From positions 6,359 through 70,358 of IMG/VR virus record IMGVR_UViG_3300021197_000975: a stretch of DNA of 64,000 nt, one strand, 5' to 3'. Shown in pieces: positions 37,578-60,726 of the stretch. Made by a program: the position numbers and the translations under genes. Under the pieces are notes generated by a model. The model searched no databases, was not told the DNA's origin, and saw only the letters and a program-made list of their open reading frames with translations. The stretch is from a virus. Numbering within the stretch: position 1 is the stretch's first letter; each line of letters opens with the position of its first letter.

Positions 37578-40500
37578 ATGAGTTGTAGTTTAAATTTTCT
37601 AGATGATTTGAAACAGAAGTTTATAGATCAGGGTAATTCCGAAGCCGATGCAAACAATATGGTGGAGGCCCTGAAGATTGCTTCTTCTGATCCTAGATCT
37701 TTTAGGAAACATGTTGCAAGTGAGAAACTAAAGGAAACATGGACATCCGAAAATAAAGCCGATCTTCAAGGACTAATGAATAAGGTTCTTAAAAGCAAAG
37801 ATGGCACTCTTCTTTTTGATTCATTAAATGAAGAAGAATCCCAAAGTCTTAAATATTTATTAACGAAAAAAATGGCTAAAGATAATGACCAAGCTCCAGT
37901 AGTGCGTCCTTCGAATGCTGATGTTAGGATACAAGCAGAACAAGAACTAGAAACAGAGATCGAAAGACTACAAGAAATTGGTGATGATCGTGGGGCCGCA
38001 AGAAACCAACAAGCTTTATCTCATCTACAGCAGATTAGGAAAAATAATTCTAGGTTAGGTAATCAATATGAAAGCATCAGCGAGAGCATTGACAGTAGAG
38101 ATCGCCTTCGAGAACAGCTAGTTCTTCTAGATGTTTGGCTAAGAAATGTTGATGATGGTAATAAAAAAGCTGAAGCTCGTATAAAAGAAATGAATGAGCA
38201 GCTTAAAACAATCAAAGATGACAAGTATAATCAGGCCAAAGCAGATAAAAAGACTTATGAAAAACAGATAAAGAAGCTTAAATCTGAACTCAAGTCTATT
38301 AAGAATAAGAAATCTGAGCCAGCTAATAAAATTAAGCGGGAAATAAAAGAAAAAGAAGGTAAATTAAAAGAAGCAGTAGCTATAATTCAAAAGGCTGACA
38401 GGGAAGCTGGACCCCTCGAGAAAAAAATAAATAGGATTATAGAAGCAGCAAGAGAATTAAGCGATAAAAACCCTGAGGTTAAGAAGCTTAGAAAAGCCCA
38501 TAGCGCTGCCGAAAAGAAATTAAAAGATGTTATGGCAGAATTAAATAAGGCAGGGTTTGCTTCTGATGGCTTCCTTCAATCTATTGTTCAAGGAATTAAT
38601 ACTGCTGTAACAGCTAGACAGTTAGCTGAAGATCTCCAAAGAGCTAGGCAAGATGAGGCTCTTCGGATTGAGTTAATAGATTCTTATTTTGATAAGAACC
38701 ATAAAAATTATATCAAGCCTAAGGAAGAGAAAGAAACTACTCTTAGCAGGGATATCTTAAGTGAAATTCTTGGGCCGAGCTTTGTTGTATCTAGAACAGA
38801 ATATGGACAGGTGCTAACTAGAGAAGAGATAGATGTTTTATTAAAAGAGTGGAGAAGCCTGAACTATAAGTATGCTGGAGAGCATGGCCTGTTAATTGCA
38901 GATCTTACTTTTGCAGATCAACAATCACTTGAAGCAATGCAGGAGCAATCTACTAATGAAGGTAAGTCGGTAGATGAAACAGATAATAATACTATTATTA
39001 TTCCTATGTTAACACAAGCTCAAGCAATGGAAAAAAGCAATCCCGGTGTTATTCCAGATGCGAACGCTCAATTAACCCCTCAGGAATTAAAGCAGAGATT
39101 ACTTAAGTTTGTTCGAAAGCTAGAAACTCTTCGCTCATCTGTTGGCTATGGTAAGTATGTTGGTCTACAACATGTAGAAGCAGTCTTAAATAATATGCCC
39201 GGTCTTGACGATGTAAGTGCTCAAATCTGGTTTGATGATGCTGTTCGAGTCTTAAATGAAGAAGGTATTGAGACCCTAACCCACACGGAGAGACAAGAAA
39301 CTCTTAGGCATATTCTTAGATTAACTGGGATGACTGATGCAGAAATAAGTTCTTTGCCGGAAATGATTGATTATGGGAGATGGCTCCAAGATTTGGATGT
39401 CCATGATAAGGAAAACCCCATGCCCCTAAATCAAGTTGTTAGTTTTGATATTGAAACCCGAGGTAAAAACAACGAAGAAATTATTGGCTGGTCAATCAAA
39501 AGAATTGATGGTACAATAATTAATAGCAGAACTATTGGCGAAGCTATGACTAAAGAAGAAGCGCAGGAAATGCTTGCCCTGTTAAATGATCTCCAAAACG
39601 ACGGTTATAAAGTTGTAACTTTTAACGGTAATAGTTTTGATATGAATACATTGGGCGCGCTTGCAGAAAATCAACAGATGGGCGTTAGAATTGCTTATCG
39701 AAGTCTTGATGTTATGCAGATCCTTAGGACTTTTAAATCCCAAATCCATACTGAGGATGATGCACAAAGTTTATATTTTAGTTTAAACAATGTATCTAGA
39801 GCCTTAGGAATGGGAGGAAAGTTTGGAACAGTCGGGCCGGAAGGATCTGTTCTCAGGAACTTAGGTAAGTGGTATTATTTAGTACACAAGAAAGCTACCA
39901 CAGGCGAAGACGTAACATTTGCAGATATTGTAAAGAATGGTGAGACTATGGCAGAAGAGGATGCTCAATCTATTTTAGATGAAATAAATGGTATGAGTTC
40001 TGAAGAAGCTGCATCTTATCTCGACCAATATCTTGATGCAGATGCTATGCTTCCCGCTCAAATTCTCTATGGAAATGGAGCACAAGATGGCCTGTTTAAT
40101 ATGATGGGAAGAAATGTTAAAATTAAAAGCGCTAATAAGGGGGAAGCTACAGTGGAAATAGCAGCTCCTACACCCACTTGGGCCTTGACTTCAAATGTTA
40201 CTGAAGCAAAGCAAGATAGGTGGCATGGGCTTGAATGGGCTAGGCACGTTGCTGATATTGGGGAAGTAATGACTTCCGCTTTCTCCTCTATTGATGATAC
40301 AAGTATTGTATCTGTAGATTTAGATCTTGCGATCAGTAGAGTATATGACGCTGTTATTAGAGCTCAGCATCTTGATCCATCTCAAAGGTTATTAGCCGAA
40401 CGAATGGTAGATTTAGCGAAAGAGACTCTTTCTAAAGAACAGCTACTTGAAAAAGAAAAGATTAATATTATCCAAGCAAACCGACAAGCTCTTGAGAATA

Positions 40501-43500
40501 TACACAAGGAAGAGTTTGAAACTGGCGAAAATGCTGGTAGATATCCCATCGAATTTGTTGGGGCTAATAAGATAAGATATACTAGCGGTGCGATAGACGC
40601 ACAGAAGGCGGAGTATACAGACTCAGTAGTGAATGGTTTCATTACGTTTATTGGTAAAAGAAAAGCAGTAGATCTTGATATCATTGCAAAGGATATTGGA
40701 TTTAGAGAACGAGCTGTTAATGAGGGTGATAAAAAGTTTGCTGAACAAATTATTAATTACTTCATCACTCGATTCACACCTCATCAAAAGTTCCAGTTAT
40801 CCGACTGGGGGGATGGAACTATTGACTATGCCCCTGCTAATTCTGTGGGTATTGCTATTGCACAGATTGTAACTACTCAGCCTGAGGGTGCTCGACTGCG
40901 TGACAATGCAAGGGATTGGATGGAAGGTGGAGCAGAAGAATTTTCTGAGTCGGCTAAGTCAGAAGATGAAGCTTACAAAAGAGAAACAACCTTCCACCCT
41001 CCTATCTTTGATGAAGTACATCAAGCTTTACCAAGATCTCTTGCTGAAGTTGAATGGGCTTATGATGATTGGAGATTGAGAAAAAGATTAGAACACATCT
41101 TAGATCCCAAACATATTACTACTAAGGAAGAAGCACTTGAAGTAATTCAAAGCTTAAGAGACAGAGAAGAAAATGAAAACGATGTTATTGGTGACACTAG
41201 AACACCAAGAATGGGATTAACGCCCAATGTATCAAACAGATTAATATGGAACAAATTACCTAGTCTGGAAGAGCATACGAACATGGTATTGGAATCCATG
41301 TTAGATATGCCCCAGATTCTTATGACTTGGGTTCATGATTCTGTTGCTCTTGGTGGTGATCATCAAATGTTCTTAGATCCCGATCTTGCTGAAACTTACT
41401 TTGAGGATAATGCTTTATCTCCCGGCTCTATGACTGGCTCGGCTCTTATTTCTGGATTAGGGATTCAGCTTGCTCATACTAGAGCCTATCCCGTAATTAG
41501 TATAGATACTGTTATCCAATCTTTGGAAAGAGGTATATCAGCATACGGAGATCATGGAACAGATGTATTTGCTAAGGGTAATTATTTTGATTACAAGTTC
41601 AATGGTCTTCACCACTTCCTTGCACTGATGTTGCAATACTCTCCTCAAGGAGCACAAAAATTAGATGAGTTCCTTGCTGAGTGGGAGCCAACAGCTTTCT
41701 TGTATAAAACATCTAAAGAAGCTCAGGATATTTATGATACGGCTGAAGAATTAATATTTGAATCTTTGACAAACCATATTAAGAATACACAAGAGGGACC
41801 AAAGAGATCAGAACTCCAAAAGCTTTTAAACTTTATGGAAAGTGATCCTTCTATTAGAGATGCCATGAAGAAGATTGTCATTCCTCGCCTTTACATGGGT
41901 GGTATAGATGCCATGAAATCTGGCCTGAAGGAAAAAGCAAGAGAAGAAGGATGGGACATTAATACAGATCTTCTGGCTGAACTTGCAATGGGACCGATTC
42001 AAGCTACTAAGCTTAGGGTGGTTGATAAGGCATTAGGAGGTCTTACTGATTCTGATAGGCGACAGCTTGCAGATGCTCTTGTAACAATGTATGGTGATAT
42101 CTATGACCACGGTCGGTGGCATGAGCAGTACAAAGATTATGTAAAAGAAAACCATTCTCTGATGGAAGGCAAAGAATTTGCGTTAAGTGATCTTCAATTT
42201 GCAATTCAAAAGAGAATAGAATTTATGGTAGAAATCCTTACACCCAAAACTGCAAACGATGGTCTTAAACTAAGAGAGCGTAAGGGTAAAATGCTAACGC
42301 TTATTCAAGAAAGATTCCAAGGAAGAATACAAAAAGCTATTGATTTTGTGAATGAAAAGGGTGGTGTTATAAAAAACCAAGAAGATATGCGTCAGCTGCA
42401 TGTTATTATTTCAGGTAGTGAGTCTGCTTGGAAGACGAGTGGAACCTTAGCGGCTATGAATGTAATGGGCCGAACTGGATACAGATTAAGATCAGGTGAA
42501 AAGATAAATGAAACCGATACACTTCTTGAAGCCCAAAGGCAAATCATTGGTAGACATTTAACAGAAGAAGATTTGTTAAACTACCCAAGCCATTTGGTTT
42601 ACTTTGCAGTGGGTCAGGACAGTGCTGGTCAGAGATTATATTATCACTCCAACAACTGGGGAGTTCAGCCTCAGAATGTTCCGGCTGCTCAGGTTTATCG
42701 AGAGAATACTCATAAGGGTGAGGATGATAACCCCTATGGTATGTGGAAAATGGAACATAATAATCTTGCTAGCCTCTCAAAAGAGGATGCTGAAACTGAA
42801 GTAATGAAGTTAGTTGCTAGAGACTTGTCGGTTAGAATGGCAGGCTCTCATGCTCCTCAGTTTGGGGGCTATTCAACCAGACCACTTAAGGTTACAAAGG
42901 ATAATGTTAAAACACCCGGAGATGAAACAAGAGAAGGGTTCTGGAGAGATCTTAAGAAAAGAAGCACTGAAGAAGATAATGCTTACGTTAGAGCACTAAA
43001 TGAAGAAGCTAACTGGATATCAGCTGAAGAAAGAATGAAGGCAGGCGTTAGTATGGAAGGCGATGCAGCTTTAATTGATAAGCTTAAGCAGAGAAGAAAG
43101 ACAACGGGCCTGCGAAGAAACGCAACCAGAAATGTTTTAGACCCCACTCGAACTTTAAATAGAGCACAGAATGAAATCTATGTCCCGTCACAAGATGCAT
43201 CGGTTAAGGGACTTGGAGCATTTAGACCACAGTATGCTGACATCCCTTGGGCAGAAAGAGGGATCATGTCTATGGCAGAGGCTCGTTCAAACTTCAAAAT
43301 AGATAGAGGGTATAACGGCAGAATACACAAAGACGCATTAAGCAAAACTCCTGAATCTATAGCAGATGTTATTCCTTCAAGTGCAAGAGGATGGCAAGGA
43401 AAATATCAAGGATCGGATGCTCCATATGTTCATGAAACACCTATTGATTTTATAGGTGAAGGTATTCTTGGAGCTGGTCGAAAGAGAATTGCTAGAAGAG

Positions 43501-46500
43501 CAGAAGGATTAAAGAATGTTCTTGAGAAGTTTGCTGTAGAGAAGGGCCTTCAACATTTTTCAGAAAAGAATGATTGGACTTCTTTATACGTTAGGTGGCA
43601 AGTTGATAAGAAAATCACGAGACCTTTCCTTAAAGAGATCAGTGCTCTTGAAACTTCTACTGGAGCAACAAGGGGATCTAGTAGGCAGCAAGCTTTATTA
43701 GCAAGGGCCAATATGCTTTCTTCTCTTACTGGACTGCACCAGTTCCATAGAGATGTGAGCCAGCAGAATATGACACTAATTGAATATGGACAAATGCTTG
43801 GATTCCATCCTGAGGATTTAAAGAAGAGTGCTGCAAATCCAGAAGAAGGGAACCAAGCGTTCTATTGGGCGGACTTCTTTAAGTTACTCGCCAACCGAGG
43901 TGTGACAAATCTTGCACCCCTTACAATAAATATAGATGCTAATTCATTGAGTCCTGTCAATCTTACAGCAGAAGGTAATATTCTAATGGGTGGGGAAATG
44001 ACTGCCACCAGTAAACAAACTAGAATTATTACTTTAACTGTACAGCATAATGAAATGTCTCAGGTTCTCTTTACTCTCTTCTATGAACAGAGGGGAAGAG
44101 AAATCGCACAAGAATATCTTCAATCAAAAATGAGTGAAGCAGCTTATGGAAGGTTAAAGAAAGATGGAGCAGGTTTCCCAATGTTATCTGAAGTTCCAAT
44201 GTCTTTCCAAACAGAGTTAATGCATAGGTTGATTGAGGACAAAGAACTTCTTTCTATTGCTATAGATAATATGGGGTTACATATTATTCTCGATTCTTAC
44301 ACTAATGAAGCATTGGCTAGTATTGGTCCTCATAATCTTGACCCTGATAAAACACTTAGGCCCGGCATGCTAACAGGTGGCCTTCATAATTTCGCTGTTA
44401 ATGAAAACGCAGGGATGTATGGCATTACACCTGAGATTGCAAATTCTATGTTGTCTTCGTTAAGAAATACTGTAGTTAATAATACTGCGGAACTTGTATC
44501 TATTACTGGATCTCAGATGGGGCAAGTGGAAAGCCCATCTATGAGATTAAGAGATCAGGCTAAAAGAGATTTCTATGAATCACAGCGAGATGGATTCTCA
44601 GATGAAATGGATGCATTGTCTTATCTTCATATAACAAACAATGTTGATCCCCCAAAGTCTGTTAGGAATCCCAAGTTAAAGAATGAATACGGACAACCTG
44701 TTGTTGTTTATGATGCACCACATTACTTTGCTAAGAAAGACAAGACTACTGGATTGAATCCAGTTGAAGAAGGCTTTGCGGGATACATTAGATCGGCAGC
44801 CTTAAACGCTAGAGCTTTGGGATTAGAAACTGAAGGTAAATTACTTGCGCAAATTTTAAACCCAAAGTCTACTCTATTCCGTACAAAGTATTTACGAGAA
44901 GCTGTAGTCATTATTGTTGAAGCTTCTGGAAGTAAGATGGATTCCTTATTTAAGCTTGAAGCTTTCTTGCCCGGTAACTGGACAAGAGCTGACATTGAAG
45001 TTCTCTATAATGAAGCAACAAAAGTTAGAAAGGGATCCAAAATGTCTATTGTGGATGCTTATAGGATTGCAGCTTCAAGAACCATGGAAAGAAATACCTT
45101 CATCTCTCCCGCCAGAAGATACGTAGAATTGAACGGGGAGATAGATGAATTAAATATTTCAGCAGACTTTGCCGCTTATATTGGAGCAGATGTTAGCAAT
45201 CCCGAAACATTACTGCAAGCAAGGGCTGCTGCTAGAATTGCAAACAATTCATTAAAGGAAGTATCTTCAGAAGTTGAAGCCTTTAGTGGAATGGATGATG
45301 ATATTTCTCTTATGGAAATATCTGATCCCGAAGGCTTCTGGCATAAATACGGTAACGAGGGATCATCAATTACAGCCCAGATTTCAAGTATGGTTGGAGA
45401 AAATCTAATCACTCCCGAGACAGCTGCTTTCCTTAGGCAGATGATGGGTGTTGTTCTGTCCCATAATAATGATTTTGCAAATGGATTAAGTTTAATTCAC
45501 GATCCTGAAATCTCTAGAGCAAGCATTGCTGAGAAGTATGGCGACAAATACAGTATCCGTATTAACCCAGACTTAATTAAAAGAATGCCTCAAGCTGAAA
45601 TCATTAAAGTGTTTGCTCACGAGGTTGTGCATATTGCTAGAATGAAGTATATGGAGAGTGGGGATAGAGCTTGGAATTCTCTTGTTGGTGTTTACTCTAC
45701 AGAAAATGGTAGAGAAACAATGAGAGGCTTAATTACTATCATGACTAACGGAGATAGTAATGCAGTCAATGATGCAATGGAATACTATACAGGTAACATT
45801 GATGAGTTCCTTGCTGAGTGGGGTGCGTATTACTTGATGGCAAAGACATTAGGTAATCATACTGTTGTTAACGAAGTTCAGAATCTTAGGAATACTGATA
45901 CTACAGCAGAAGAAACTATGCAATGGTGGGACCGTGCGTTTAACTACATTAAGCGTGTCATGGGTAGCATTCACCAAAAGCTTTCAATTATGCAGCAGAC
46001 TAACCCTGAAGTATACAAGGAGATGAGTACTATTGTTGATGGCTTGTTCAACTTCGATAATGCTCACGAATTAACCGGCAGACCTCTAGCCAAGAATCCT
46101 AACATGCGAATGGGAGTTGCAAAACATACTCGCATGGGGCCTGACTTTGGTAGACCTAGTGATGAAAATTCTAGGATTAATTCGTTGGCTGAAGTAATCT
46201 CAAGAGAAAAGAACTTACGTAATACAGGAGCAGAGAGTGATACCAACCATCCCCGACATGAGGAATGGTTAGCTGCTACTGAAACAATTAGAGCCGAAGG
46301 ACTTCTTGATCATGATATCTTAGGTATTCCTCATAGTGAATACATATCAACACTACATGAAATGTGGGATGCTGATACTGGAGAATTTAAACAGCCAGAA
46401 AACGATAAGGAAGAAATGATAATGATATCATATCTCCTCAAGCAAGTTGCTAGACAAAGAGGAGAAAGAGTTGATTCTCCCGGTACGTTTGGACATCTTC

Positions 46501-49500
46501 TTCGAAAGGTGTTCCCTGAGTTTACTGAAACCGTACAAGATTTCTTATACAATAACAGTAACAGAACAGATAAGACTTGGAACAGTAAGGTAGCAATAAT
46601 TGCAAACCTTGCTTGGCTTCTTGACAATACTAAAGCAACAACTGAAAATGCATTTCAGGCTGAAGGTAACGGTATCATCCATAATAAAAATTACATCGAA
46701 CAATACTCAAGAAGAGTTACTGAAGCTTCTAATCTTATTCGAAGTACATATGATAAGTCAACAGCTATGGGTATTGAACAGACGGCATTCTCTTTGCTGA
46801 TGGATCCTGAATATGTTCTTCCCACTACTCTTACTGAAGAACAAAAACAACATGCTACTATGCTGTCAGATATCTTTAGAGCTAACCATGGGCAATTACT
46901 TAACATGGCTAAGGACATGCTTCTTAGAAGAGAAGGAAGAGAAACACATTCCAGCAATCTTGCTCTTAGATTAAATAGAGATTTTCTTCTTAGACAAGAG
47001 GGAAGGCGTGAAGAATTCGTCACAGCACTTGCTAATAAGCAATCAAGAAAGTTGCAAGCTTCTCTAATCCCAGCAGGAACAATTGATTCTACTCTTGTTT
47101 ACATGAGTGGTCTTGTTCCGCGAGTTATAACTAATCCAGATGGGAACAGTGTTCACCCTGAGTTTATTAATGAACTGGTAAAATACACCCGTGAAGATGC
47201 TCCGGGTGCTTTGAAAGCACAGTTAAAAATACTTGATAGACTGGCCTTGGAACAATTCCAGAAGAGCAATAAGGACTTGGATAGTGAATTATTAGCTAAT
47301 GAATTTGATCCTGAGGGAGAGAACCATTATCACAATATGGCTATTTATTACCAAAGAGCGGTAGTCAAGTTACTTAAAGATACTACAAATAAAAAGATAA
47401 CTTATAACGAGTTGTTTGATAAGGGTAGATTAAGTCAAGGTGAGCGAGGAGCTATCTTTAATTATCTCCAGAACAGAACAAATGTTGTTGAAGATGGTGG
47501 CGGTACTCTTGATGCGGTAGGTCGCGCTTCAGATCTAAAGTCTGGGCTTGGTGACATATTTAGATTAAGACAGGACATCTCTTCTGATATTGATGTCTGG
47601 GCTGGTGTCTCTCCAGATGCTGCCAGAATGAAGACAGCTTATCTTTTAGCACAGGTTGGTAACTCTACCTTCATTCCCTATGAGGATGGAACAGAATTAA
47701 CTATTACTGATATCTTTGGTCCTGATCAATATGGCGATGAAAGAGAACATTCTATTGTTCAAGCTGGGTTTACTCGAGATCTTAGACAGATTATCCGAGG
47801 AACTCAACGTGGTCTAGGAGCTGCTGCCCACACAAGAAAGGTTATCAAAGAACTTACTGGCGTAAACATGGACTTCAAAAGAATAATTGGATCATTACGA
47901 AGATATCTAGATGAGTCCCCTTACGCTACTCATATTTCTGAATCCGTTGATTTTAATGGCTTAGATAAATCTACCGGCGACCAAAAAGCTTTCATTCAAA
48001 GAGGGCTCGCACATCTCGAAAGAGTATATGAAGTAGGGATGAACATTGGAAACAGAGTTGAAATTACAGATAGAGCCGCGTGGGATACACTAGCAAAGTT
48101 TGGTCCTGATATTTTGACATACGTCTGGGGTCCAAACCTTAATGCTGCTAACTTAATCTTTGAGGGCGGGTTGTCTGGATTAACTACAGCTATGTATGGT
48201 GGTAATCCTGTCCAACTTTACTCTGATATCCTTGGTAATACCTTCTCACTCATATGGAAACTACGAAAGGGAATGTCAAACTTAGAATTCACTGGGCAAT
48301 TGAGAGCTTTGGGTGATGCTATGTTTGATACTGATTCAGCCTTACGTGACTTTATGGAAAACGATGTCTTTGAAAATGATCAATTCTTTGAGGAAGAAGG
48401 AATTCCTTTAAATGAAAGAGGCCGTAAGGCTTACTCCGGTTGGATTAAGGGATTAAGAACCTATAATAATATATCTGCTATGGCTGTTAAGATGGCAACT
48501 ATGAAGCAGGGCCACCGTATTCTTATGAAGAATCAAGAAAAATTACGGGAAATGATAGAGTGGAATAATAATTATGACGGTCCTGATAATATGAACAAGT
48601 TCCATAAGATGAAGAAGGAACTTGGTTTAAGATTCAGGGGTGAGGTTGCACAGATGTTTATGGAATCTGGTCTACTTAAAGAAGATAGTGCAGATAAATT
48701 AGATTGGATTATGGCTAATGTTCCTATGGTTCGGGGGATGATAGATATGTCATCTCTTAGAGAACGTATTGAACAATCTCCTAATGCTACTATTACCCAA
48801 GGGAATTCTGAATTTGCACTTAAAGATCTTTGGGAGTTTGCAACATCTATTGAATTGTTTGCTGATAAGTATTCTCAGCTTTCTGTTGTGAAGTCAGATC
48901 CCCTTGATAAAGATGTGGATAGTAATGCTGCGTGGTATCTTAATGCTTTATACCGCCAGTTCCCTAACTTGTTTGTGGCCCAGCATATTCTCCGTAAGGG
49001 AGCAAGGCATGGTATGGGTCCGTATGCTATGACCCTTAGTGCAGGTGTTGTACTCGATCTTATTTACAACTTATTCCTTGCCGCCTTGTTTGGAATGATT
49101 GAGCCAAAGGATTTCTCACGCTGGGCAAAGGGAGACTTTGATACCTCTGATCTCCTCCTTATTGGTAGATCTATTGCTAGATTCCCCGGATTTGGTATCA
49201 GAGGTAATGCGGCTACTGAGGCAGCAATGGGATTGGGATATGGTATTGCTAAATATACTGGAGGCGACATGGATTTAGCTAGAGCAGGAACCTTAGCTAT
49301 GCCCCTGCCAGTAGTTGCTGGAATTCGTTGGATAGAGAATATGTGGGCTGGTGTAAACAATCCCCTCAAATACGCATTAGCTGATTCTTCTGCGGATAAA
49401 GAATACTGGCAAGAGAAGACAATACGGGACTATGTGATGGCGGCAAAGAGTATGATACCCGGATTGAACGATAGTATTCTTACTTCGGTTATGAATAACG

Positions 49501-49898: not shown

Positions 49899-49912
49899 TA
49901 AGGAGATTAATT

Positions 49913-50179
49913 ATGGCTAAGAAAAGAAAAAGTAAAGGTGCAATGAAGGGCTGCAATATCGGCAATGGTTGCAAAAGTAAATCGGGGGGGCTTACGGCTA
50001 AAGGTCGAAGAATGATCAATAAGAAAACTGGATCTAAGCTTAAGGCCCCTCAGCCCGGAGGAGGAGCTCGTAAGAAAAGTTATTGTGCCAGATCAGCAGG
50101 GCAGATGAAAAAGTTCCCCAAGGCTGCTAAGGATCCTAACAGCAGATTGCGGAAGGCACGTAGGAAATGGAAGTGCTAA
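49913..50179 (+). CDS. Small basic protein common in aquatic phages
   Basis: GGLTAKGR...LKAPQPGGG.RKKSYCARS.G...DPNSR..KARRKWKC; AAGGAG RBS. Confidence 0.8.
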   Translation: MAKKRKSKGAMKGCNIGNGCKSKSGGLTAKGRRMINKKTGSKLKAPQPGGGARKKSYCARSAGQMKKFPKAAKDPNSRLRKARRKWKC

Positions 50180-50274
50180 AATCGACTATAGGGGTCGAGA
50201 ATTTGGACGGGGGGAGTATAGCTTTGAAGTTGAAGCTATCCCCCAGTACCCCCCCTTCAAAGGAGATACATACC

Positions 50275-50457
50275 ATGTATCCAAAGAAAAGACCTGAGAA
50301 AGGCAAGCTCATTGATATCTTCTCTCATAATCCTCTCGTAAAGGGAGGACAGGGAAGGTCTGCCCAGCAGACTAAGGAAGATACAATCAGTGGTGCTATT
50401 GTGTGGACTGTATTCATTGCAGTCTTCCTTGTGGTGCTGATCATCGCAGCTGCCTGA
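50275..50457 (+). CDS. Small protein with a C-terminal transmembrane helix
   Basis: AAGGAG RBS before ATG 50275; IVWTVFIAVFLVVLIIAAA. Confidence 0.55.
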   Translation: MYPKKRPEKGKLIDIFSHNPLVKGGQGRSAQQTKEDTISGAIVWTVFIAVFLVVLIIAAA

Positions 50458-50464
50458 TCTCACT

Positions 50465-50516
50465 GACAATCTCAACGATGCTCTCTCAATCGAGAGAGTA
50501 TCTATTGGGATTCTCA
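50465..50516 (+). repeat. 52-nt structured repeat, copy 1
   Basis: GACAATCTCAACGA-[22-nt hairpin]-TCTATTGGGATTCTCA; flanks identical to 50871-50922. Confidence 0.9.
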
Positions 50517-50565
50517 CTCTGAGAATTCTGTGCTTAAACTAGGGCTTGGCCCTAAGGAGTTTGAC

Positions 50566-50862
50566 ATGTCACAGTATGACGAACTGGCAGCCCGCCTTGC
50601 GGTGCTCGAAGCTCGTGATCGTATGCAGCGTGCCATCTTGTCGATGGTGACTGACCCTGCTACGTGGCAATCATTGCTTGACTTCCATGCTGAGTGGAAG
50701 GACGAGCTCCAAGCAATCGGTAAGGTTCTCAATGCTTTCTTCGATACGGAGAATGTACCTGAGCAGCTTATCGATACCATCGTTGATGGAGTCAAGGGAC
50801 ATGTAGCAGTACATGAGACTTGGCTAGAACATCATCGAGAGGCTGGTCACCTCAGTCACTGA
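50566..50862 (+). CDS. Hypothetical early protein
   Basis: AAGGAG RBS before ATG 50566; lies exactly between the two 52-nt repeats. Confidence 0.7.
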   Translation: MSQYDELAARLAVLEARDRMQRAILSMVTDPATWQSLLDFHAEWKDELQAIGKVLNAFFDTENVPEQLIDTIVDGVKGHVAVHETWLEHHREAGHLSH

Positions 50863-50870
50863 ACGTGACA

Positions 50871-50922
50871 GACAATCTCAACGACACCCTCTCTTAGGAG
50901 AGGTTGTCTATTGGGATTCTCA
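50871..50922 (+). repeat. 52-nt structured repeat, copy 2
   Basis: Same flanks and length as copy 1; different but still self-complementary core. Confidence 0.9.
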
Positions 50923-51057
50923 TCCCACGGAGGAGAACGAAAGGACACAAGGACCACGCCTGCGGTGGGCAGGCCAGACAAACTATGCAAGGAAGCAAGC
51001 TTCACGCTGTAGCTCAACAGATCGTTCCAGTGCTACAGCGGAGCAATAGACAATAGC

Positions 51058-51110
51058 TGCGGTAGACAGTAGGCGTGTCACTGCCTGCCGCACATTCTCC
51101 TGAGACACGC
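51058..51110 (+). promoter_or_regulatory. H-type pseudoknot in the leader of the divergent polymerase gene
   Basis: Stem 51058-70/51080-92; loop GCGTGTC is complementary to GACACGC at 51104-10. Confidence 0.6.
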
Positions 51111-51135
51111 GATAACTTTGGAAAGGAGGTTTGTC

Positions 51136-53046
51136 ATGATGGCAGACCGCACCAAAGTAGTGAGTGCTTTGACAAAGCCCGTATCAACGATATGGGATTT
51201 CGTCCACACTCTTCACACCTTCTGCAACATCCCGTTGCAGGAGGCTGGCGATCTCATGTTCGCCTTGGCTCACGATGGAACCATCGAGCTGTTCAACGTA
51301 GCAGACGATGAATCCAGCAAGACCACCACATATGTAGTTAATACACATGTGGCAAGTCGAGCCTTTGGACTTGATGGGGAATGTCGCCTCATCAGGTGTG
51401 ACGAGAACAAGCGTATCCCATCCCTCGGGGCGGGCGGGCGTCTTGGCTCTTTCCACTTGCCACCCATGTTGGCGAAGGCTATGGATCACAATGATTCCCA
51501 GCGGTTTATCATGCACACCGGGATGCTCGATATCTATCGACGCATCAAGGATGGCATGTCCCGCGAGGATGATTCCAAGAATGTGATCTGGACCCGTCGC
51601 CGCAACAGGATGGAACTGCTACTGGTTACGGAGTTCGAGACCCATGGTCCCGGCCCTTATCACCAGATCGGTACACCCGAGGCAGCATTCCGGCTCCATG
51701 TTCTGGCTTCCACTGCGGGCATTGCGTCCCATCAGGGAAGTGGTTGGCATCGTGCAGTGTGCGACTTCGCTCTTCGGTACGGAGCACCCAAGGGCAGTGA
51801 CGAGTGGGATCACGGTATGTACATCCTTGAACAGGAGTACAACGTGAACACCAGCAACTACGCCAAGATTCTCGAGGCAGGTTGCAGCTTGGATCTGTTC
51901 CTTAATCCCGCCAAGTACGAGCACATGCTCGGCACCACTGACGGGGCCAAGTTGGCCGAAGCTGTTCGCGCTGCGTTCTGCATTCATGAACTGCTGACTG
52001 AAGGATCCACCTCTTACATCTTCGGTAAGGACCGCAACTCCTGTGGTCCCGCCGATATGTCCCGTATGATCGGCTGCCGCGATCTCGCTACAGCTACGAA
52101 CATGATCTACTCGGGCAAGGAGGTGAACTTCGCAGCTGAAGTTCTCAAGTTTGTCGGCAAAAAGATTGCAGTGACTGACTCCATGTTGCCTTACGAGGAT
52201 CTCATCCTCGATCCCAAGGCAACTGGCAAGCCCTGCCTTCAGCCCATCCAGTACACGGCCTCTGCGGCTAGTGCGTCCCGTGCTCTTGTCTTTCGCAAGG
52301 GCAAGGGGGATGATGTCCATTACTTGGACGCTGCTGACATGTACATTCCCGGCTCTCTGGATAAGGTTGCTGAATGCGACCTCAACCAGAAGTGGCTCCA
52401 CGTTCACAAGGAGCTGGGTTGGGAGAAGAGCATTGCTCTTACCATTGAGACTGCAAGCTGCATCGAAGAGGCCTTCCACATGCTTTCCCACGGGAGGGCA
52501 CGAACGGCTGGTCAGATCATGAAGAAGGCAGTTGAAGTATGCAATGAGAATAAGACGTACCTCACATGGCCGACCGTCATGGGAATTGATTTCGTCTATC
52601 GGCCCACTGAACTTGATTACAGTGTGCTCGAAAAGGATGACGATGGCAACATCGTCAAGGACGAACGCATCAAGATCTCAGGTCGAGTGAATGGCAGGAG
52701 GAAGCAGTACAAGCTGTACCCGACTGTCACTGAAGCTCGTAGCTCAGGAGCCTTGGCTGCTGTGCTGCGTGTGAAGGATGCGGAACAGAATGTCCTGTAT
52801 AACTGCGAAGCCAGTGATGCAGGTATTCCCACCGCCAACACTCACGACAAGTTCGGCACAGCCCTTGGCTGCCTTGGTTTCGTGAACGAGGTGATCACCC
52901 GGAATGCAAAGACCGGGACCGATGCCAACTTCTTCAACGAGATCATTGACAGGTACGAACTGCCTTTCAACCACTTCACGCCACTGCGGCCTGAAGAGTT
53001 GGATGGCAAGCACATGCTGGACGGCACTCCGCCTCATCTGGCATGA
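51136..53046 (+). CDS. Highly divergent single-subunit (T7-family) RNA polymerase paralog, N-terminally shortened
   Basis: Colinear matches to the in-window RNAP: HQGSGWHRAVCDFA, KDRNSCG (motif A), KATGKPCLQPIQY (B), WPTVMG, KDAEQ, THDKFGT (C). AAGGAGG RBS. Confidence 0.8.
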   Translation: MMADRTKVVSALTKPVSTIWDFVHTLHTFCNIPLQEAGDLMFALAHDGTIELFNVADDESSKTTTYVVNTHVASRAFGLDGECRLIRCDENKRIPSLGAGGRLGSFHLPPMLAKAMDHNDSQRFIMHTGMLDIYRRIKDGMSREDDSKNVIWTRRRNRMELLLVTEFETHGPGPYHQIGTPEAAFRLHVLASTAGIASHQGSGWHRAVCDFALRYGAPKGSDEWDHGMYILEQEYNVNTSNYAKILEAGCSLDLFLNPAKYEHMLGTTDGAKLAEAVRAAFCIHELLTEGSTSYIFGKDRNSCGPADMSRMIGCRDLATATNMIYSGKEVNFAAEVLKFVGKKIAVTDSMLPYEDLILDPKATGKPCLQPIQYTASAASASRALVFRKGKGDDVHYLDAADMYIPGSLDKVAECDLNQKWLHVHKELGWEKSIALTIETASCIEEAFHMLSHGRARTAGQIMKKAVEVCNENKTYLTWPTVMGIDFVYRPTELDYSVLEKDDDGNIVKDERIKISGRVNGRRKQYKLYPTVTEARSSGALAAVLRVKDAEQNVLYNCEASDAGIPTANTHDKFGTALGCLGFVNEVITRNAKTGTDANFFNEIIDRYELPFNHFTPLRPEELDGKHMLDGTPPHLA

Positions 53047-53159
53047 TTCACCTTGACGGGTGACTCTCCGGGGACGGGCAGGCTGGGAGAAATCTCAGTC
53101 TGTCTATTAGATGTCTAGTTGTTAGATATCTATTTATTAATCTCACTGGAGATAAAACA

Positions 53160-53606
53160 ATGAACAATGGAAACAACGCAAGGTACTTCTACCTCGAGGA
53201 GGTGGAGTCACCTCACCGGAAGTTCTTCTTCACCTCATTCGGAGACCGGGTGGGTGTGAAGTTCGTGGACGCAATGCCCGAAGAGCTTCGTGAAGGTGCG
53301 AAGATATATGATCTTATTACCTTCCTGCCCATGTGTGAGCAGTCAGGGTACAAGGTCGTACAGAATCGCTGGACTTCCAAGCATATCCGTCTGACGAAGT
53401 TGGATGGGATCTGGAAGGCCAAGGTTGTGGCTGTTCACCCTCTGGCCGACAAGCCTCTTCACGCCACCTTTGGTGGTGAGACGATGCGAGATGCCCTCTC
53501 CAACTTCTGGCTTGGGTGGAACCAGAAGGTAGTGAATGAGTATGGACACCTCAATGTCCACACTCACATCATCTTCACCGAACCGAAGAAGTACCTCGAG
53601 TGCTGA
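53160..53606 (+). CDS. Hypothetical early protein
   Basis: GGAG RBS; 148 aa; codon style matches the island. Confidence 0.7.
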   Translation: MNNGNNARYFYLEEVESPHRKFFFTSFGDRVGVKFVDAMPEELREGAKIYDLITFLPMCEQSGYKVVQNRWTSKHIRLTKLDGIWKAKVVAVHPLADKPLHATFGGETMRDALSNFWLGWNQKVVNEYGHLNVHTHIIFTEPKKYLEC

Positions 53607-53617
53607 TGCACTGATTA

Positions 53618-53648
53618 CAAGGCCCCTTGCAAAGTGCTTGGGGCCTTG
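53618..53648 (+). terminator. Hairpin immediately after the gene (possible terminator or processing site)
   Basis: CAAGGCCCC/GGGGCCTTG 9-bp stem; poor U-tract. Confidence 0.4.
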
Positions 53649-53664
53649 ATCTCTAGGCATCTCT

Positions 53665-53870
53665 ACGTAACCCTAGATAACCCAAGTATCACGTAGCCCA
53701 TCATAACACAGGATAGCCCTAGAGGTAGCCCTAAGTCGGCCCAGAGTAGCCCGAGGTAGCCCTAGAGGTAGCCCTACAGGCAGGTAGCCCCGTGGTATCC
53801 CCTAAGTAGCCCCCAAGTAGCGGGGTAAGGGGGTATCCATAGGCCTACCTGCTTTTTTCGTAGCCCAACC
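53665..53870. repeat. Array of degenerate short GTAGCCC repeats
   Basis: About 8 TAGCCC copies plus variants (GTAACCC, GTATCCC), often 10-12 nt apart. Confidence 0.9.
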
Positions 53871-54105
53871 CAAGACGGAACGCTTCGCTGACCATCTCTT
53901 GCCTTCGGCACACGCGGAACACACTCCCAGTTGCTCCCGAATGCCAGCGGGGGTAAGCCCGTGGCATTCTGGGCAGTTTGTGAACATGTGTCACCGAGTA
54001 GGGATCTTTCGGGATCTTCTTGGTGACAGGTTGGAAGAGTCATCGTCCAGCCGTCCCCGTTGTGGGGAAGAAATGATGACGTACTCTTCGGAGGACTTGG
54101 AATCA

Positions 54106-54339
54106 ATGGCGAAGACCACTGATACCAAGCAGTCCACCAGCCCCAATGGATTCACTCGAATCCGTGAGGCTAAGGTGTCCCTTGAGGCCCAATACGCTGA
54201 GCGTGTTGAGGCTTGGGATGACGCCACGGTAGACCACTGCCTCGATATGATCGATGAAGGACGCATGCGCGTTCCCTTCAAGGTCCGTATCGTGCGTGCG
54301 TCTGCTGTCAAGCGTGGACTCGCCACTAATAACGGTTAA
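54106..54339 (+). CDS. Hypothetical early protein (MAKTTDTK...)
   Basis: GGAGG RBS at ~54090; biased codons; upstream extension unlikely. Confidence 0.6.
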   Translation: MAKTTDTKQSTSPNGFTRIREAKVSLEAQYAERVEAWDDATVDHCLDMIDEGRMRVPFKVRIVRASAVKRGLATNNG

Positions 54340-54344
54340 TCCGT

Positions 54345-54965
54345 TGTTGGGCCTCGCCTAGCGGGGTGGTGGTGTTTAGCACACCCGGCAGTAGCACTGG
54401 CTGTCGTTATGTCCTCAGTGCTTTTCTTTATGCTCTCTCCTTCGGGAGAGGGTGTAGAGAAAATGAGTTAGGTTGGAACCAACGGATCTCCCGTGAGCAG
54501 GTGCTTGCAGGGCTGCAACCCGGTGAAGGTGGCGACTGCCCCTCCATGGGAGATCCATTCCAACCGCAACGAGCAGCAGACGGGATGCAACTGCAATAAC
54601 AACATCCCAATTCGGGTGCTGGAGTGTGATGATGTCCGCCATTGACCAGCATACTATGAAGAGGCGGGTCCGGCTAAAGAAGGCAGCCGTGAGGTGGATA
54701 GGGGACGAATCGCCAGCCTTTACTTATGGAGACCTGAAGCCAGATCGTATGCTGGAACAGGATAAAGATAGCGCCTCTGTCTTAGGCGGGAACTGCTGGG
54801 CATGGTGAGAGGATACTCTCTTTGGATACGGTACACGCCGGTTACATGTAGGTAGATAAACCGTGGCCCGTAGCACGAAGAAATCGGGGCGGTACGGACC
54901 TTTGCTGTGAAGACGTTACCAGTAAAACAGCATGTGCCTGAGTATGCACGTAAATAACTACTCCA
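54345..54965 (+). ncRNA. Candidate large structured non-coding RNA
   Basis: No credible ORF; many nested helices with G-U pairs, a cUUCGg tetraloop and a terminal pseudoknot. Confidence 0.6.
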
Positions 54966-54973
54966 ATCTAATA

Positions 54974-55077
54974 GGGGGACCTAGGCATGCTCTACGATGT
55001 CCTGAGGTTGCTTGTGCTGGTTCAGGAGCCAAGATAAGTAACTTATGTCGTATCGGGTTCGAATCCCGGCCCCTCCT
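54974..55077 (+). ncRNA. tRNA-like element 1 (non-canonical)
   Basis: T-arm CGGG-TTCGAAT-CCCG and an imperfect G-rich/C-rich acceptor stem; a long hairpin replaces the anticodon arm. Confidence 0.55.
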
Positions 55078-55084
55078 AACCTAT

Positions 55085-55190
55085 GCCCTGCCGTGGCTTG
55101 GCTAAATTCTACGTGTCTTTGATAAGTAATTGGTCGTAGAAGATGAAAGTCAAAAGACTAGAGAGGTTCGACTCCTCTCGGGGCTTACCA
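55085..55190 (+). ncRNA. tRNA-like element 2 (non-canonical, encoded CCA)
   Basis: GCCCTG/CGGGGC acceptor, AGAGG-TTCGACT-CCTCT T-arm, variable hairpin AGTC-aaaa-GACT, 7-bp stem with a 21-nt loop, 3' ACCA. Confidence 0.6.
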
Positions 55191-55480
55191 TATCACGATG
55201 AGTCGTGCGTTAGTATAGAGCGTGAGACTATACCCAATGCAGAACTGGATTAGCGGGGGTGTCAGAGGTCTGTTGAGGTTTGAGTGCTACCAAGAGTCAG
55301 AAAGCATTACACGATTTTAGGTCTTGAGTTCGACACAAAACGGCTCGGGCTTGTGAGCTAAGGATCGTATCCTTCCCTGACTGCGAAATAACGTGAGGTC
55401 GATGGGTGGTGTAAGCATGACAACACACACGAGTTTCTTATGTATTACAAGGAGAACATATGATAATTCCAAACATGTTC

Positions 55481-55509
55481 TTGATCGGTGCTAGGTTATA
55501 TATTATACT
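55481..55509 (+). promoter_or_regulatory. Putative host sigma70-type promoter
   Basis: TTGATC-N17-TATACT upstream of the early gene run that leads to the RNAP. Confidence 0.45.
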
Positions 55510-56214: not shown

Positions 56215-56246
56215 ATATAGACAAAGGTTAAAACTAAGGTATTACT

Positions 56247-57611: not shown

Positions 57612-57622
57612 CTCTAAACCAA

Positions 57623-57665
57623 GGGAGAGCAGGGATTTAATCGCGAGTAAGCGCCCTGCTCTCCC
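57623..57665 (+). promoter_or_regulatory. Strong intergenic hairpin (12-bp perfect stem)
   Basis: GGGAGAGCAGGG/CCCTGCTCTCCC; no U-tract. Confidence 0.5.
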
Positions 57666-57679
57666 GCTCCCATTGGAGG

Positions 57680-57871
57680 ATGATTATGTATTTAAAAGTA
57701 GAGACAACTGTAACACGAATCATTACATACTATTACAATGATGATGGACACCTGTCTGTTGTTGATTCTACTGATCCAATATCTAATCATACTATTCTGG
57801 AAATGAGACATGAAGAAACGATTACCAACACAATTCCCAAGCAACCCTCAAGTTTACTTGTTAGGATATAA
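57680..57871 (+). CDS. Hypothetical protein
   Basis: GGAGG RBS; 63 aa. Confidence 0.5.
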   Translation: MIMYLKVETTVTRIITYYYNDDGHLSVVDSTDPISNHTILEMRHEETITNTIPKQPSSLLVRI

Positions 57872-58304
57872 GACTGAGTATTCTAGTTATGTGGATAGAA
57901 TATTATCCCATCCAAGGCACACACATCTTGCTGTTCAAGTAGGAGATTGGTGCTATCATATCACAACTGATGCTACTCCTGATAACTCTAAGGCTTATTG
58001 GGTTAGTGAAGAAGTTAGTAATAGACTGTGGAAAAAACCACTCACAAAAATACTAGTAGGGACAACAGATAAGAAGTGGGAAGACATTGTAAACTTTAGT
58101 TTAAACTGGTCTTCGCCGTTGTATCTAACACTCATTACTTATTTTACCTTTAGATTATTTAGGTGGAAGAAGGATTGTGTTACTTACTCTAGAAAATATT
58201 TAGAGTATCTTGTAGGAATAAAGATTAAGCATCCGCATTCCGTAACCCCAGATGGTTTTATCAAGGAGATATTAAACTGTGGGTATAAAAACTCAATGGT
58301 ATGA
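57810..58304 (+). CDS. Putative permuted papain-like (NlpC/P60 superfamily) enzyme
   Basis: His motif HTHLAVQVG precedes Cys motif DCVTY...VTPDG, the permuted order. Confidence 0.5.
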   Translation: MKKRLPTQFPSNPQVYLLGYKTEYSSYVDRILSHPRHTHLAVQVGDWCYHITTDATPDNSKAYWVSEEVSNRLWKKPLTKILVGTTDKKWEDIVNFSLNWSSPLYLTLITYFTFRLFRWKKDCVTYSRKYLEYLVGIKIKHPHSVTPDGFIKEILNCGYKNSMV

Positions 58305-60726
58305 ACTGACTCCCGAGGAGCAGTCACACCGTATCAATTTACAAAAGGTATTTGAAGAAGAACTTTTGACTAGTGGTGTCGAGCGTTACTGGAAAGATTG
58401 GGAACGATCAACAGATGAAGGGAAACCTGAACAGCTGTTGCTTGAAAGTTCCGTGATCCACCTTGCTCCATACTATCAGAAGTGGATTGATGTGGCGGTA
58501 AGCCATAGAAAATCTCCTCTTTGGTTACCTCCATTGTTATCTTTAGGTGCTGCTAAGATGGCTGATCTAACTATAAGATCTGTACTCAAAACATTTCTTA
58601 CACGAGCCACTGTATCGAAGTTATCTATTGGCAATGGGATGCCGTTCAACGCTCCCACTGCGCAAGCAATATCTAAACAGATTGCTGATGATGCTATTGC
58701 TATCATCTCTTATCAACAAGCTAAAGATTTATTTAAAGAAGATTGGATGAGGCAGTCTAAGTTTATTAAAAACTGGACACCTAAAAGATGCAAAGCTTTT
58801 ACTGATAAAGTGGCTACTATTAGTGAGTATACACACAAACAGAAGGAAGACTTTGGTCACAACATGTTACGTGTTGCACTTCAATCTGATATATTGACAT
58901 CTAAAATTGTATTTACAGGAGCTAGACGTAAAGCATTGATGGTAAGCCTTGCTCCTAAGATTCTAGAAGAGCTGTCAAATAGGCATGCTCTACTTGAAAC
59001 TGCTAGCATGGTGTATAGACCTATGATATCTCCACCTGTTCTTCATACTAAAGAAGAAGATGGTGGGTTCTTGTCCCCTTGGATAAGAAAGAAGATGATT
59101 AAAAGATACCATCCTATTGGATCTGATCCTAAAGAATGGAACTCTAAACCAAGTCAACTTGTGTTGGATGGTTTAAATGCTCAGATGGAAACTGAATGGA
59201 CAGTTAACTCTAAGGTTCTTGATGTTATGGAAAAGTTTTTCTATAATGATTACCGAGAAGCTAATGTTCCTTCATATACATTCAAAGATCATGCATTCAA
59301 TCGACCTTACCCTGAAGAAGGAACCAAGGTTGACCAAGCCAAGTGGATTCAAGAAGCCAATGAGTCTTGGGGTGAGTGGTATAAAGAAGAACAAACTCGT
59401 AGTCGTATGCTTGTTAGACTAAGATTAGCTAGGAAGATGGAAGACTTTGATTTCTTTTATATGCCATACACATTAGACTTTAGAGGTAGAGCTTACTCAG
59501 TATGTGAGTTACTCTCTTGTCAGGGTGTAGACTTTGACCGATCCTTGATTACATTTGCCACACCTATCAAACAAACTGAACGTGGTTTGTTCTGGCTTAA
59601 GGTACATGTAGCAAACTTGTTTGATCAAGATAAGGTTAGCTTCGAAGAAAGAGTTCAATGGGTTGATGATAACATGGATCTTCTTAAGGAAATGAATGAT
59701 GATCCGCTTGGTAACAGAGGTTGGGTATCAGATGCAAAGAAAAAGAACAAGTCGTTTCAAAGACTGGCTTCTATCTTTGAGTTGTTCCGTACTGATGGCA
59801 TGACTCAGTTACCTATCCAATTAGATGGCAAGAACAACGGTGTTCAACACTGGAGTGCTATCCGTAGAGATAGGAAGCTCGCTGTTCTTACTAATGTTAT
59901 TCCAAGTGCGACGAATAACGATCTATATCAGTATGTTGCGGACAAGACCTATCATATTATGATTGAGAATGAAGACAACAGAGATTGGTATGATAAATTT
60001 ACAACGTATTGGAACGATGGTCTTCCTCGTAGTGTACCTAAAAGAAGTACTATGTGTGATGCATATGGTCTTACCTTCTTTGGTATGCAGAAGTATGTTA
60101 AGGAAGAAGGACACGTTGATTGGGTTGATCGTGATGATCGAGGTGGTGCTATTGTAGAACTATCTAGAGCATTGCAAGAAGGACTAAGTACTACAATGCA
60201 AGAGCCTAACATAGGTAAACAATACTTGCGTAGTGTTGCTCGTATCTTAAATGATATGAACCTCCCTCTTGTATGGACTACACCTAGTGGGTTCACTGTT
60301 CAACATGTATACAATCAGGTCATTGAAAGAGTTAGTTATGCTGAGCTTTTCAATAGAACTTCAATAACTTTCGCAGCTTTAACCGAAGAGTTGGATAGCA
60401 AGGCACAGTTCTTAGCTATTAGTCCTAACTTTATTCATAGTATTGATGCTGCACATATGTTTTTAACTATACATAGGATGATTATGGAACACAATATAGA
60501 TTCCTTTTCTTTTATTCATGATTCTTTTGGGACGTATGGTCCTAACATAGATGCCATGTCTAAAATTATTAGGGAAGAATTTATCAGAGTACATAGGGTT
60601 AATCCTTTGGAACAATTTAAGAAAGACATAGAGGAAAGATATGAGATCATACTCCCAGATGTCCCAGAAAACACAGACGACTTCAACATCGAAGATGTCA
60701 TCGAGTCGGAATACATCTTTGGATAA
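58279..60726 (+). CDS. T7-type single-subunit DNA-directed RNA polymerase
   Basis: PMISPP, LDFRGRAY, LDGKNNGVQH (motif A), RSVPKRSTMCDAYG (B), PNFIHSIDAAH, IHDSFGT (C), C-terminal YIFG. Confidence 0.97.
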   Translation: MGIKTQWYELTPEEQSHRINLQKVFEEELLTSGVERYWKDWERSTDEGKPEQLLLESSVIHLAPYYQKWIDVAVSHRKSPLWLPPLLSLGAAKMADLTIRSVLKTFLTRATVSKLSIGNGMPFNAPTAQAISKQIADDAIAIISYQQAKDLFKEDWMRQSKFIKNWTPKRCKAFTDKVATISEYTHKQKEDFGHNMLRVALQSDILTSKIVFTGARRKALMVSLAPKILEELSNRHALLETASMVYRPMISPPVLHTKEEDGGFLSPWIRKKMIKRYHPIGSDPKEWNSKPSQLVLDGLNAQMETEWTVNSKVLDVMEKFFYNDYREANVPSYTFKDHAFNRPYPEEGTKVDQAKWIQEANESWGEWYKEEQTRSRMLVRLRLARKMEDFDFFYMPYTLDFRGRAYSVCELLSCQGVDFDRSLITFATPIKQTERGLFWLKVHVANLFDQDKVSFEERVQWVDDNMDLLKEMNDDPLGNRGWVSDAKKKNKSFQRLASIFELFRTDGMTQLPIQLDGKNNGVQHWSAIRRDRKLAVLTNVIPSATNNDLYQYVADKTYHIMIENEDNRDWYDKFTTYWNDGLPRSVPKRSTMCDAYGLTFFGMQKYVKEEGHVDWVDRDDRGGAIVELSRALQEGLSTTMQEPNIGKQYLRSVARILNDMNLPLVWTTPSGFTVQHVYNQVIERVSYAELFNRTSITFAALTEELDSKAQFLAISPNFIHSIDAAHMFLTIHRMIMEHNIDSFSFIHDSFGTYGPNIDAMSKIIREEFIRVHRVNPLEQFKKDIEERYEIILPDVPENTDDFNIEDVIESEYIFG

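Follow-up and report, generated by a model that had tools for sequence, protein, structure and literature searches.

In coliphage N4 (Schitoviridae), transcription passes from a virion RNA polymerase (RNAP), gp50, to the RNAPII made up of gp15 and gp16, and then to the host RNAP. Phages of the T7 type (Autographiviridae) rely on one RNAP, carry the core proteins gp14-gp16, and have a genome of about 40 kb. In the passages of Iyer et al. (2017, PMC5512222) that deal with N4-like virion RNAP (vRNAP) modules, these modules are almost always followed by a HExxH zincin peptidase and are confined to N4-like phages or prophages. Here, we describe a phage genome with features of both systems, IMG/VR record IMGVR_UViG_3300021197_000975 (70,358 bp, completeness rating 100%), whose bases 6359-70358 form the 64,000-nucleotide window to which all positions below refer. 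Three of its genes concern us, which encode a giant protein of 4106 residues (37578..49898), a compact second single-subunit RNAP of 636 residues (51136..53046), and a canonical T7-type single-subunit RNAP of 815 residues (58279..60726), and these lie on the + strand, as do all long open reading frames (ORFs) of the window and the domains of the giant, the early block, and the hairpin elements located below. The reading that we favor, at somewhat better than even confidence, is that phages of this lineage encode three polymerase modules from the T7/N4 superfamily, arranged as an N4-like relay on a T7-type body.

The 815-residue protein is the least ambiguous of the three. It matches PF00940 (E 3.4e-76, 257 bits, residues 433-789) and phrog_414 (E 1.8e-151), which bears out its designation as the canonical RNAP in the initial annotation, and its translation holds DFRGR, LDGKNNGVQH, PKRSTMCDAYG, and IHDSFGT, so that a significant profile match goes together with the T/DxxGR motif and motifs A, B, and C of the family. 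Its closest cultured relative is the enzyme of Rhizobium phage RHEph01, and as the identity to this best match is only 28%, the lineage must lie far from any isolate.

The compact RNAP likely starts at the ATG at 51136, located 7 nt past an AGGAGG, in preference to the TTG at 51118, and the database gene call gives 635 residues. By itself, the window's copy has no Pfam or PHROG match and does not exceed the PF00940 cut-off; as a single sequence it has no PDB sequence match, tblastn against cultured phages gave no relative, and a word-index search and IMG/VR patterns returned only the query. Its relatives were instead reached through the genomes of giant-protein homologs and by running phmmer against the full set of 1.84 billion representatives, which gave 19 at E ≤ 1e-3. 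In fact, four of the five IMG/VR records with relatives of the giant protein hold an ORF of 586-616 residues that is 28-32% identical to the compact RNAP (E 5.6e-48 to 1.9e-32), and these four exceed the PF00940 cut-off with 57.9, 51.8, 51.8, and 44.5 bits. In the alignment of 21 compact-RNAP sequences (A4), which includes the window's copy, 19 members match PF00940 (best E 5.8e-31), with the window's copy being one of the two that do not. Invariant throughout A4 are R186, D299, K365, Y373, D548, and D571, among which D299, K365, Y373, and D571 align with T7 D537, K631, Y639, and D812; in the window, the two catalytic Asp residues are encoded at 52030 (motif A) and 52846 (motif C), and the motif B Lys and Tyr at 52228 and 52252.

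Moreover, an hhalign comparison of A4 with the window's canonical RNAP gave a probability of 99.4% and an E of 2.6e-21 over 444 columns (residues 291-815), and further alignments were obtained with N4 RNAPII gp16 (E 9.8e-10) and with the T/DxxGR end of N4 gp15 (E 4e-7). Since the compact family aligns to residues 291-815 of the canonical enzyme and to both gp16 and gp15, it represents a single chain that lacks the T7 N-terminal domain and has no equivalent of the first ~290 residues of T7-type enzymes. The AlphaFold2 model made from A4 (predicted local distance difference test, pLDDT, 84.3; predicted template modeling score, pTM, 0.83) shows the right-hand fold, with palm, fingers, and thumb, that is found in T7 and mitochondrial RNAPs, and its top Foldseek matches are yeast mitochondrial RNAP (E 1.5e-14), T7 RNAP (1.7e-13), and human mitochondrial RNAP. 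Altogether 74 chains match this model at E ≤ 1e-3, the best ones ranging from E 1.5e-14 to 1e-11 with template modeling scores (query) of 0.52-0.61. The assignment of 51136-53046 to the polymerase family, proposed in the initial annotation from motifs, is therefore upheld by the PF00940 matches of its relatives, the hhalign alignment, and the predicted fold, and it is certain that the compact RNAP is a T7-family polymerase paralog and that the genome has two T7-family polymerases.

The third module concerns the giant protein, which occupies the ejection-protein slot after the terminase and reads as a polyvalent virion protein. Quite probably, a very diverged polymerase core of T7/N4 type is present in it, at residues ~1150-1720 (41025..42737), as judged from motifs and profile alignments. 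Here, YFD1338-YKFN-G1343-LH-H1346-F-L-A (motif A Asp1338 at 41589, with Gly1343 and His1346) aligns with T7 AFD537-GSCS-G542-IQ-H545-F-S-A, DIY 1384-1386 (41727-41735) with T7 DIY 569-571, and R1427-x3-K1431-x7-Y1439 of motif B (41856-41894) with T7 R627, K631, and Y639, and the spacing from the motif A Asp to the motif B Lys is 93 residues in the giant and 94 in T7. We aligned a 12-member family set and a 16-row set, the latter with the distant giants that were found via compact-RNAP relatives, those of G007 (4138 residues), G009 (4172 residues), G006 (at least 5321 residues), and G008 (5139 residues). The HD, D-x4-G-x2-H, DIY, and R-x3-K-x7-Y motifs are invariant in all 16 giants, with HD, the motif A Asp, and the motif B Lys and Tyr thus constant across three subgroups whose sequences have little else in common.

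Profile comparisons of the 16 giants point to the same residues. Against a T7-like profile, hhalign aligned T7 535-650 over 98 columns (E 0.0017), and against an N4-like profile it aligned N4 606-685 over 67 columns (E 0.004), both in the catalytic register. None of 100 column shuffles, a lenient null, reached these scores (maxima 17.7 and 19.7 versus 32.8 and 30.5 observed). When the giant was scanned against the T7-like profile in 57 windows, the one beginning at 1331 aligned residues 1336-1450 to T7 535-650 (92 columns, E 0.012). The core hidden Markov model does not detect the giants of G006 and G008, which are weakly linked to the giant family (A3 profile E 4.2e-9 and 7.2e-6), and these two carry TYFDGNFNGIHHKMAL and R-x3-KKPVM-x3-YGA, which are nearer to T7. 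At the core site, the G008 protein gives a weak PF00940 match (15.7 bits, E 1.1e-4 per genome), which in a Pfam-wide search (12.4 bits, E 0.068) is under the cut-off. In a language-model search, residues 1100-1960 of the giant found PF00940 clusters (0.90 and 0.89) and one of N4 vRNAPs (0.89), none of which attained the tool's confidence marks, and the control segment 1961-2820 found unnamed clusters and LPD23 but no RNAP, one of its neighbors having LPD23 on 18% of members. Likewise, single-subunit RNAPs rank top in a structural search with the giant core, and Foldseek gave nothing at E ≤ 1e-3.

As for motif C, the best candidate is HD 1253-1254 (41334-41339), which has the context (L/M)xxWxHDS in the giants and SSIHDSV in G006, as compared with ALIHDSF in T7. 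This region aligned with T7 808-834 (E 0.0085, 27 columns), and 60 shuffles gave a maximum of 17.0 versus 24.2 observed. As H1253-D1254 lies 84 residues ahead of motif A, the motif order in the giant is probably C-A-B and not the canonical one. A weaker acidic motif downstream, D1681 (QDSAGQ, 42618), was kept only as a weak alternative for motif C. Other candidates were rejected: D1254 as motif A, a role in which D1338 is by far the better fit; D1873 in the same role, as most relatives have Asn; a second polymerase module at residues 2072-2193, where weak N4 alignments lack a Lys at the motif B position; and a virion RNAP of the crAss type with DxDxD, as no such invariant motif occurs in the giants.

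Several results weigh against a third polymerase, and the foremost alternative built on them is that the phage has only two, with the giant being an ejection or polyvalent protein whose polymerase-like motifs are due to chance or are a dead relic. The host RNAP would then transcribe the early block as in T7, and the compact RNAP would act early or in a specialized role, for example on a promoter subset or in replication priming. Indeed, at E ≤ 1 none of the 12 giants matches RNAP families in Pfam, PHROG gives no RNAP match for the window's giant, phmmer and profile searches of the PDB return coiled coils or nothing and no RNAP, and hhalign of the segment or the whole protein against N4 mini-vRNAP/gp50 gives a probability of 0.1-0.5%; tblastn of the segment against cultured phages also found nothing at E ≤ 1. 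The AlphaFold2 model of residues 860-1960 (12 sequences) is poor (pLDDT 56, pTM 0.47). Its pLDDT drops furthest at motifs A and C, the candidate palm motifs scoring under 50, and the model has no Foldseek match at E ≤ 1e-3. Every hhalign value for the giant is in the twilight zone, the 16-row alignment is biased by the G006 and G008 regions having been located by motif pattern (profile matches indicated the same place), and the window with motifs A and B came only second (25.9) among the 57 scanned, behind an out-of-order match (27.0). Besides the non-canonical motif order, no T/DxxGR stands out with confidence; residues 1681-1700 align somewhat better with T/DxxGR (E 0.14) than with motif C (E 0.44, 5 columns), neither being significant, and residue 1681 is Glu in 3 of the 16 giants. 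In the compact RNAP, the window's copy has EAAFR for DxRGR and LRVKD with Arg for the conserved His, where relatives have DFRYR and IHSVD, and so lacks the T/DxxGR motif and the FxHSxD His; it is the most diverged copy (tree branch length 2.36), with the four catalytic residues kept.

What speaks against a two-polymerase phage is that the HD, the motif A Asp, and the motif B Lys and Tyr do not vary across the three diverged subgroups, that two independent profiles, T7-like and N4-like, fall in the same register, and that single-subunit RNAPs come out top in the structural and language-model searches with none for the control segment. The giant's layout is moreover N4-like, and the early block shows no enrichment of sigma-70-like sites (13 versus 11.8 ± 3.2 expected). 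We thus regard this alternative as unlikely, though it is the strongest of the competing explanations. With regard to the initial annotation, which had seen motifs of the family in their right order in a segment at ~41000-43150, the motifs proved to be invariant and the order holds for A and B, but the best match to motif C is upstream of A, and structure prediction with Foldseek, which links the compact RNAP to T7 and mitochondrial RNAPs, did not demonstrate the fold for the giant's core.

Alternatively, the core could be a module like family-A DNA polymerases, with exonuclease and polymerase parts that act on DNA ends after injection. Upstream of the core, as in family-A DNA polymerases, there is a DEDD-type 3'-5' exonuclease-like domain (residues ~623-822, 39444..40043), for which RNase_H_2 (PF13482) matches residues 623-743 (E 1.5e-6) and is present in 11 of 12 giants, with D624, E626, D688, Y818, and D822 invariant. 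Furthermore, R-x3-K-x7-Y is shared throughout the family-A DNA polymerase superfamily. In DNA polymerases, however, the position five residues past the motif A Asp holds a Glu that acts as the steric gate, and the giant has Gly there, as do the T7 and N4 RNAPs. The D-x4-G-x2-H-F-x-A and DIY motifs also fit the T7-type RNAP profile, the structural and language-model neighbors are RNAPs, and the phage has a PolA of its own (PF00476, E 1e-47), which together make a DNA polymerase improbable.

Returning to the giant as a candidate virion RNAP, we note that C-terminal to its candidate polymerase module there is a HExxH zincin or SprT-like metallopeptidase motif (45543..45641). The SprT-like match to residues 2656-2688 (E 8.2e-5, 22.9 bits) is under the 25.6-bit cut-off, 10 of 12 giants match, and H2681, E2682, and H2685 are invariant. 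Cysteine is strikingly scarce, with one in the 4106 residues of the giant, none in its 1611-residue neighbor, and one in the 924-residue neighbor, and the four post-terminase proteins (29228-49898) have three in 6885 residues; elsewhere in the phage the content is 0-5%, and it is 2.2% in the compact RNAP. The position in the virion operon, the HExxH layout, and the cysteine depletion are taken as signs of an ejected protein, and the giant may accordingly enter the cell along with the DNA. In most relatives, the sole cysteine of the giant is found at position 3-6.

We compared ten related IMG/VR records (G001-G010). The giant, compact, and canonical genes occur in that order in all six that are at least 75% complete (G001, G002, G004, G006, G008, and G009), one of which has terminal repeats, and the fragments (G003, G005, G007, and G010; 33-62% complete) each lack one or two of the genes and have a contig end at the expected site. 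Also kept across the lineage is the gene order TerL, 244 residues, ~1650 residues, ~900 residues, and ~4000 residues. The three genes are thus inherited together, and as they are kept together in one order, a division of labor among the three polymerase modules is plausible. Between the window and G001, identity is 68% for the canonical RNAP, 36-39% for the giant, and 28-32% for the compact RNAP. In a maximum-likelihood tree of 20 rows, a quick one with a flagged risk of long-branch effects, the canonical enzymes and T7 split from the compact ones with a Shimodaira-Hasegawa-like approximate likelihood ratio test (SH-aLRT) value of 100, and the sub-topologies of the two are congruent. Terminal branches reach 2.4 in the compact enzymes, 0.27 in the lineage's canonical enzymes, and 2.3 in T7, and roughly, the compact RNAP evolves ~10 times faster than the canonical RNAP.

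A chimeric contig, in which the compact RNAP and the G+C-rich stretch around it (49.5-55.5 kb) came from another genome, is effectively excluded, because despite the leap in G+C from ~0.40 to 0.46-0.56 and the lack of a close relative of this RNAP in cultured phages, the same gene order with the block in place recurs in the six most complete relatives, the G+C rise recurs in all four relatives examined, and the trees of both RNAPs are congruent. The concern in the initial annotation about a junction near 50.2 or 55.4 kb is hence removed by conserved synteny, and the co-occurrence in related contigs and the phylogeny that it had proposed as checks gave the results above. It had further not recognized the combination of three polymerases as one already described. 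We found no literature account of a T7-like phage that encodes a second, compact RNAP or a giant protein bearing a polymerase, though supplements may bear on the point, and this genome is not alone in having the combination, as the six related records carry it.

The compact RNAP gene lies within an early block (49500..55500) with a G+C content of 0.46-0.56 versus ~0.40 elsewhere. In the four relatives (L002, L003, L005, and L007), the G+C content over this gene is 0.50-0.56, as against 0.38-0.43 in the giant gene. Possible reasons for this rise include a DNA segment that enters first, a shift in codon use, and some template feature that matters to one polymerase in particular. Between the giant and compact genes are two copies of a 52-nt hairpin element (50465..50516 and 50871..50922), which has a 7-bp core stem and a ~25-bp irregular extended stem. 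The flanks of both copies are identical and their core stems differ in sequence, yet both pair, with RNA folds of -27.4 kcal/mol (z -6.0) for the first and -24.7 kcal/mol (z -3.8) for the second. Relatives have their own repeated hairpin-plus-flank elements at the same place, four in L003 (12122-13176), two in L002 (15010-15533), and one in L007 (22594-22618), and their loops are often GCAA. These elements may act as hairpin promoters like those of N4, as RNase III sites, or as terminators. Terminator-like hairpins as a class are enriched in the early block (19 versus 6.5 ± 2.6).

Other features of this region include ATTTATTAATCTCA, which was rejected as a promoter word, there being only two exact copies and 16 near matches at chance level. 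A 38-nt stretch that contains it along with a ribosome-binding site is common to 7495-7532 and 53125-53162, in the leaders of the capsid gene and of a 148-residue ORF after the compact RNAP. Past this ORF, at 53696-53853, are short tandem repeats of the GTAGCCC type and an inverted repeat, where Rfam gave the only match in the early block, one to a microRNA family far below threshold (33.6 bits versus a gathering score of 104).

The remainder of the genome is of the T7 type. PHROG and Pfam scans identified the portal (3201-4814), major capsid protein (7530-8978), and large terminase (27579-29240), as well as a scaffold and tail tube proteins A and B, and the 6.3 kb of the record preceding the window has T7-type primase-helicase, PolA, and 5'-3' exonuclease genes. 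In the same scans, the four ORFs directly after the terminase (244, 1611, 924, and 4106 residues) had no structural-family matches. Downstream of the giant gene come the G+C-rich block, the 636-residue ORF, small ORFs, a DUF932 protein, and the 815-residue RNAP. ARAGORN found no tRNA genes. The tail tube B homolog (9931-15381) has 1816 residues, with the family match confined to the last ~500 and an N-terminal extension of ~1300. Two proteins of the tail region are cysteine-rich, one of 1545 residues with 77 cysteines (5.0%; 15395-20032) and another of 821 residues with 27 (3.3%; 24120-26585).

Set beside N4, the phage has in common a giant virion-type protein (4106 versus 3500 residues for gp50) with a central candidate polymerase core and a HExxH peptidase after it, a near absence of cysteine (none in the 3500 residues of gp50), a second, N-terminally reduced T7-type RNAP among the early genes, related by profile to gp16 and gp15, and repeated hairpin elements heading the early region. 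In contrast to N4, the giant is not detectably homologous to the entire gp50 or to the vRNAP families of Pfam, its sole alignment being the local one at motif B (E 0.004), its motif order is probably C-A-B, and there is an additional exonuclease-like domain. Moreover, the second RNAP is one chain where N4 RNAPII has two, a full-length T7-type RNAP lacking in N4 is present, and the portal, capsid, tail, and terminase are T7-type. T7 phages, for their part, share the portal, scaffold, capsid, tail tube A and B, terminase, primase-helicase, PolA, the RNAP corresponding to the 815-residue one, and the use of one strand, but differ in genome size (~40 kb versus 70 kb), in lacking the two additional polymerase modules and an ejection-protein block totaling 6885 residues after the terminase, and in their RNAPs, which in cultured phages are at most 28% identical to that found here. 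The giant also resembles the polyvalent proteins of phages and conjugative elements as portrayed in passages of Iyer et al. (2017, PMC5512222), being very large and multidomain, lying in a late or virion neighborhood, and joining enzymatic domains of unrelated kinds to a zincin-like peptidase; the LPD23 on a language-model neighbor of residues 1961-2820 is a further likeness. The combination of an exonuclease, a polymerase-like core, and a peptidase on a T7 chassis was not found in the portions of that article dealing with such proteins, though its supplementary lists may hold examples.

If the three modules are indeed polymerases, a cascade from the injected to the compact to the canonical enzyme can be envisaged. 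The giant protein would be packaged and then ejected with the DNA, where it would initiate transcription of the G+C-rich block directly 3' of its own gene. This block would supply the compact RNAP, which would take over the middle genes, including that for the canonical RNAP, and the latter would then transcribe the replication and virion genes. Such a relay would be N4-like, with a canonical phage enzyme in the role that the host RNAP plays in N4. We hold only tentatively the fuller version, in which an uncultured, widespread T7-like lineage runs a host-independent relay of three enzymes, started by an injected giant with a rearranged core (C ahead of A and B).

For annotation, these findings matter because standard profile libraries flag neither of the extra modules in this genome. 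The compact RNAP would offer a new minimal RNAP scaffold of ~590-640 residues without an N-terminal domain, and the possibly permuted core of the giant would be a second one; both bear on how promoters are recognized and how initiation changes to elongation without the T7 N-terminal domain. Should the C-A-B core be real, the superfamily of single-subunit RNAPs would gain a new architecture. Injected virion RNAPs of the T7/N4 type are regarded as a hallmark of N4-like phages, and the giant would then stand outside the Schitoviridae as a counterpart of the N4 virion polymerase, one that either arose independently or is very ancient. The lineage itself would represent a natural intermediate between the T7-type and N4-type transcription programs, and relays of polymerases would have an older origin, or would have been reinvented more often, than has been believed.

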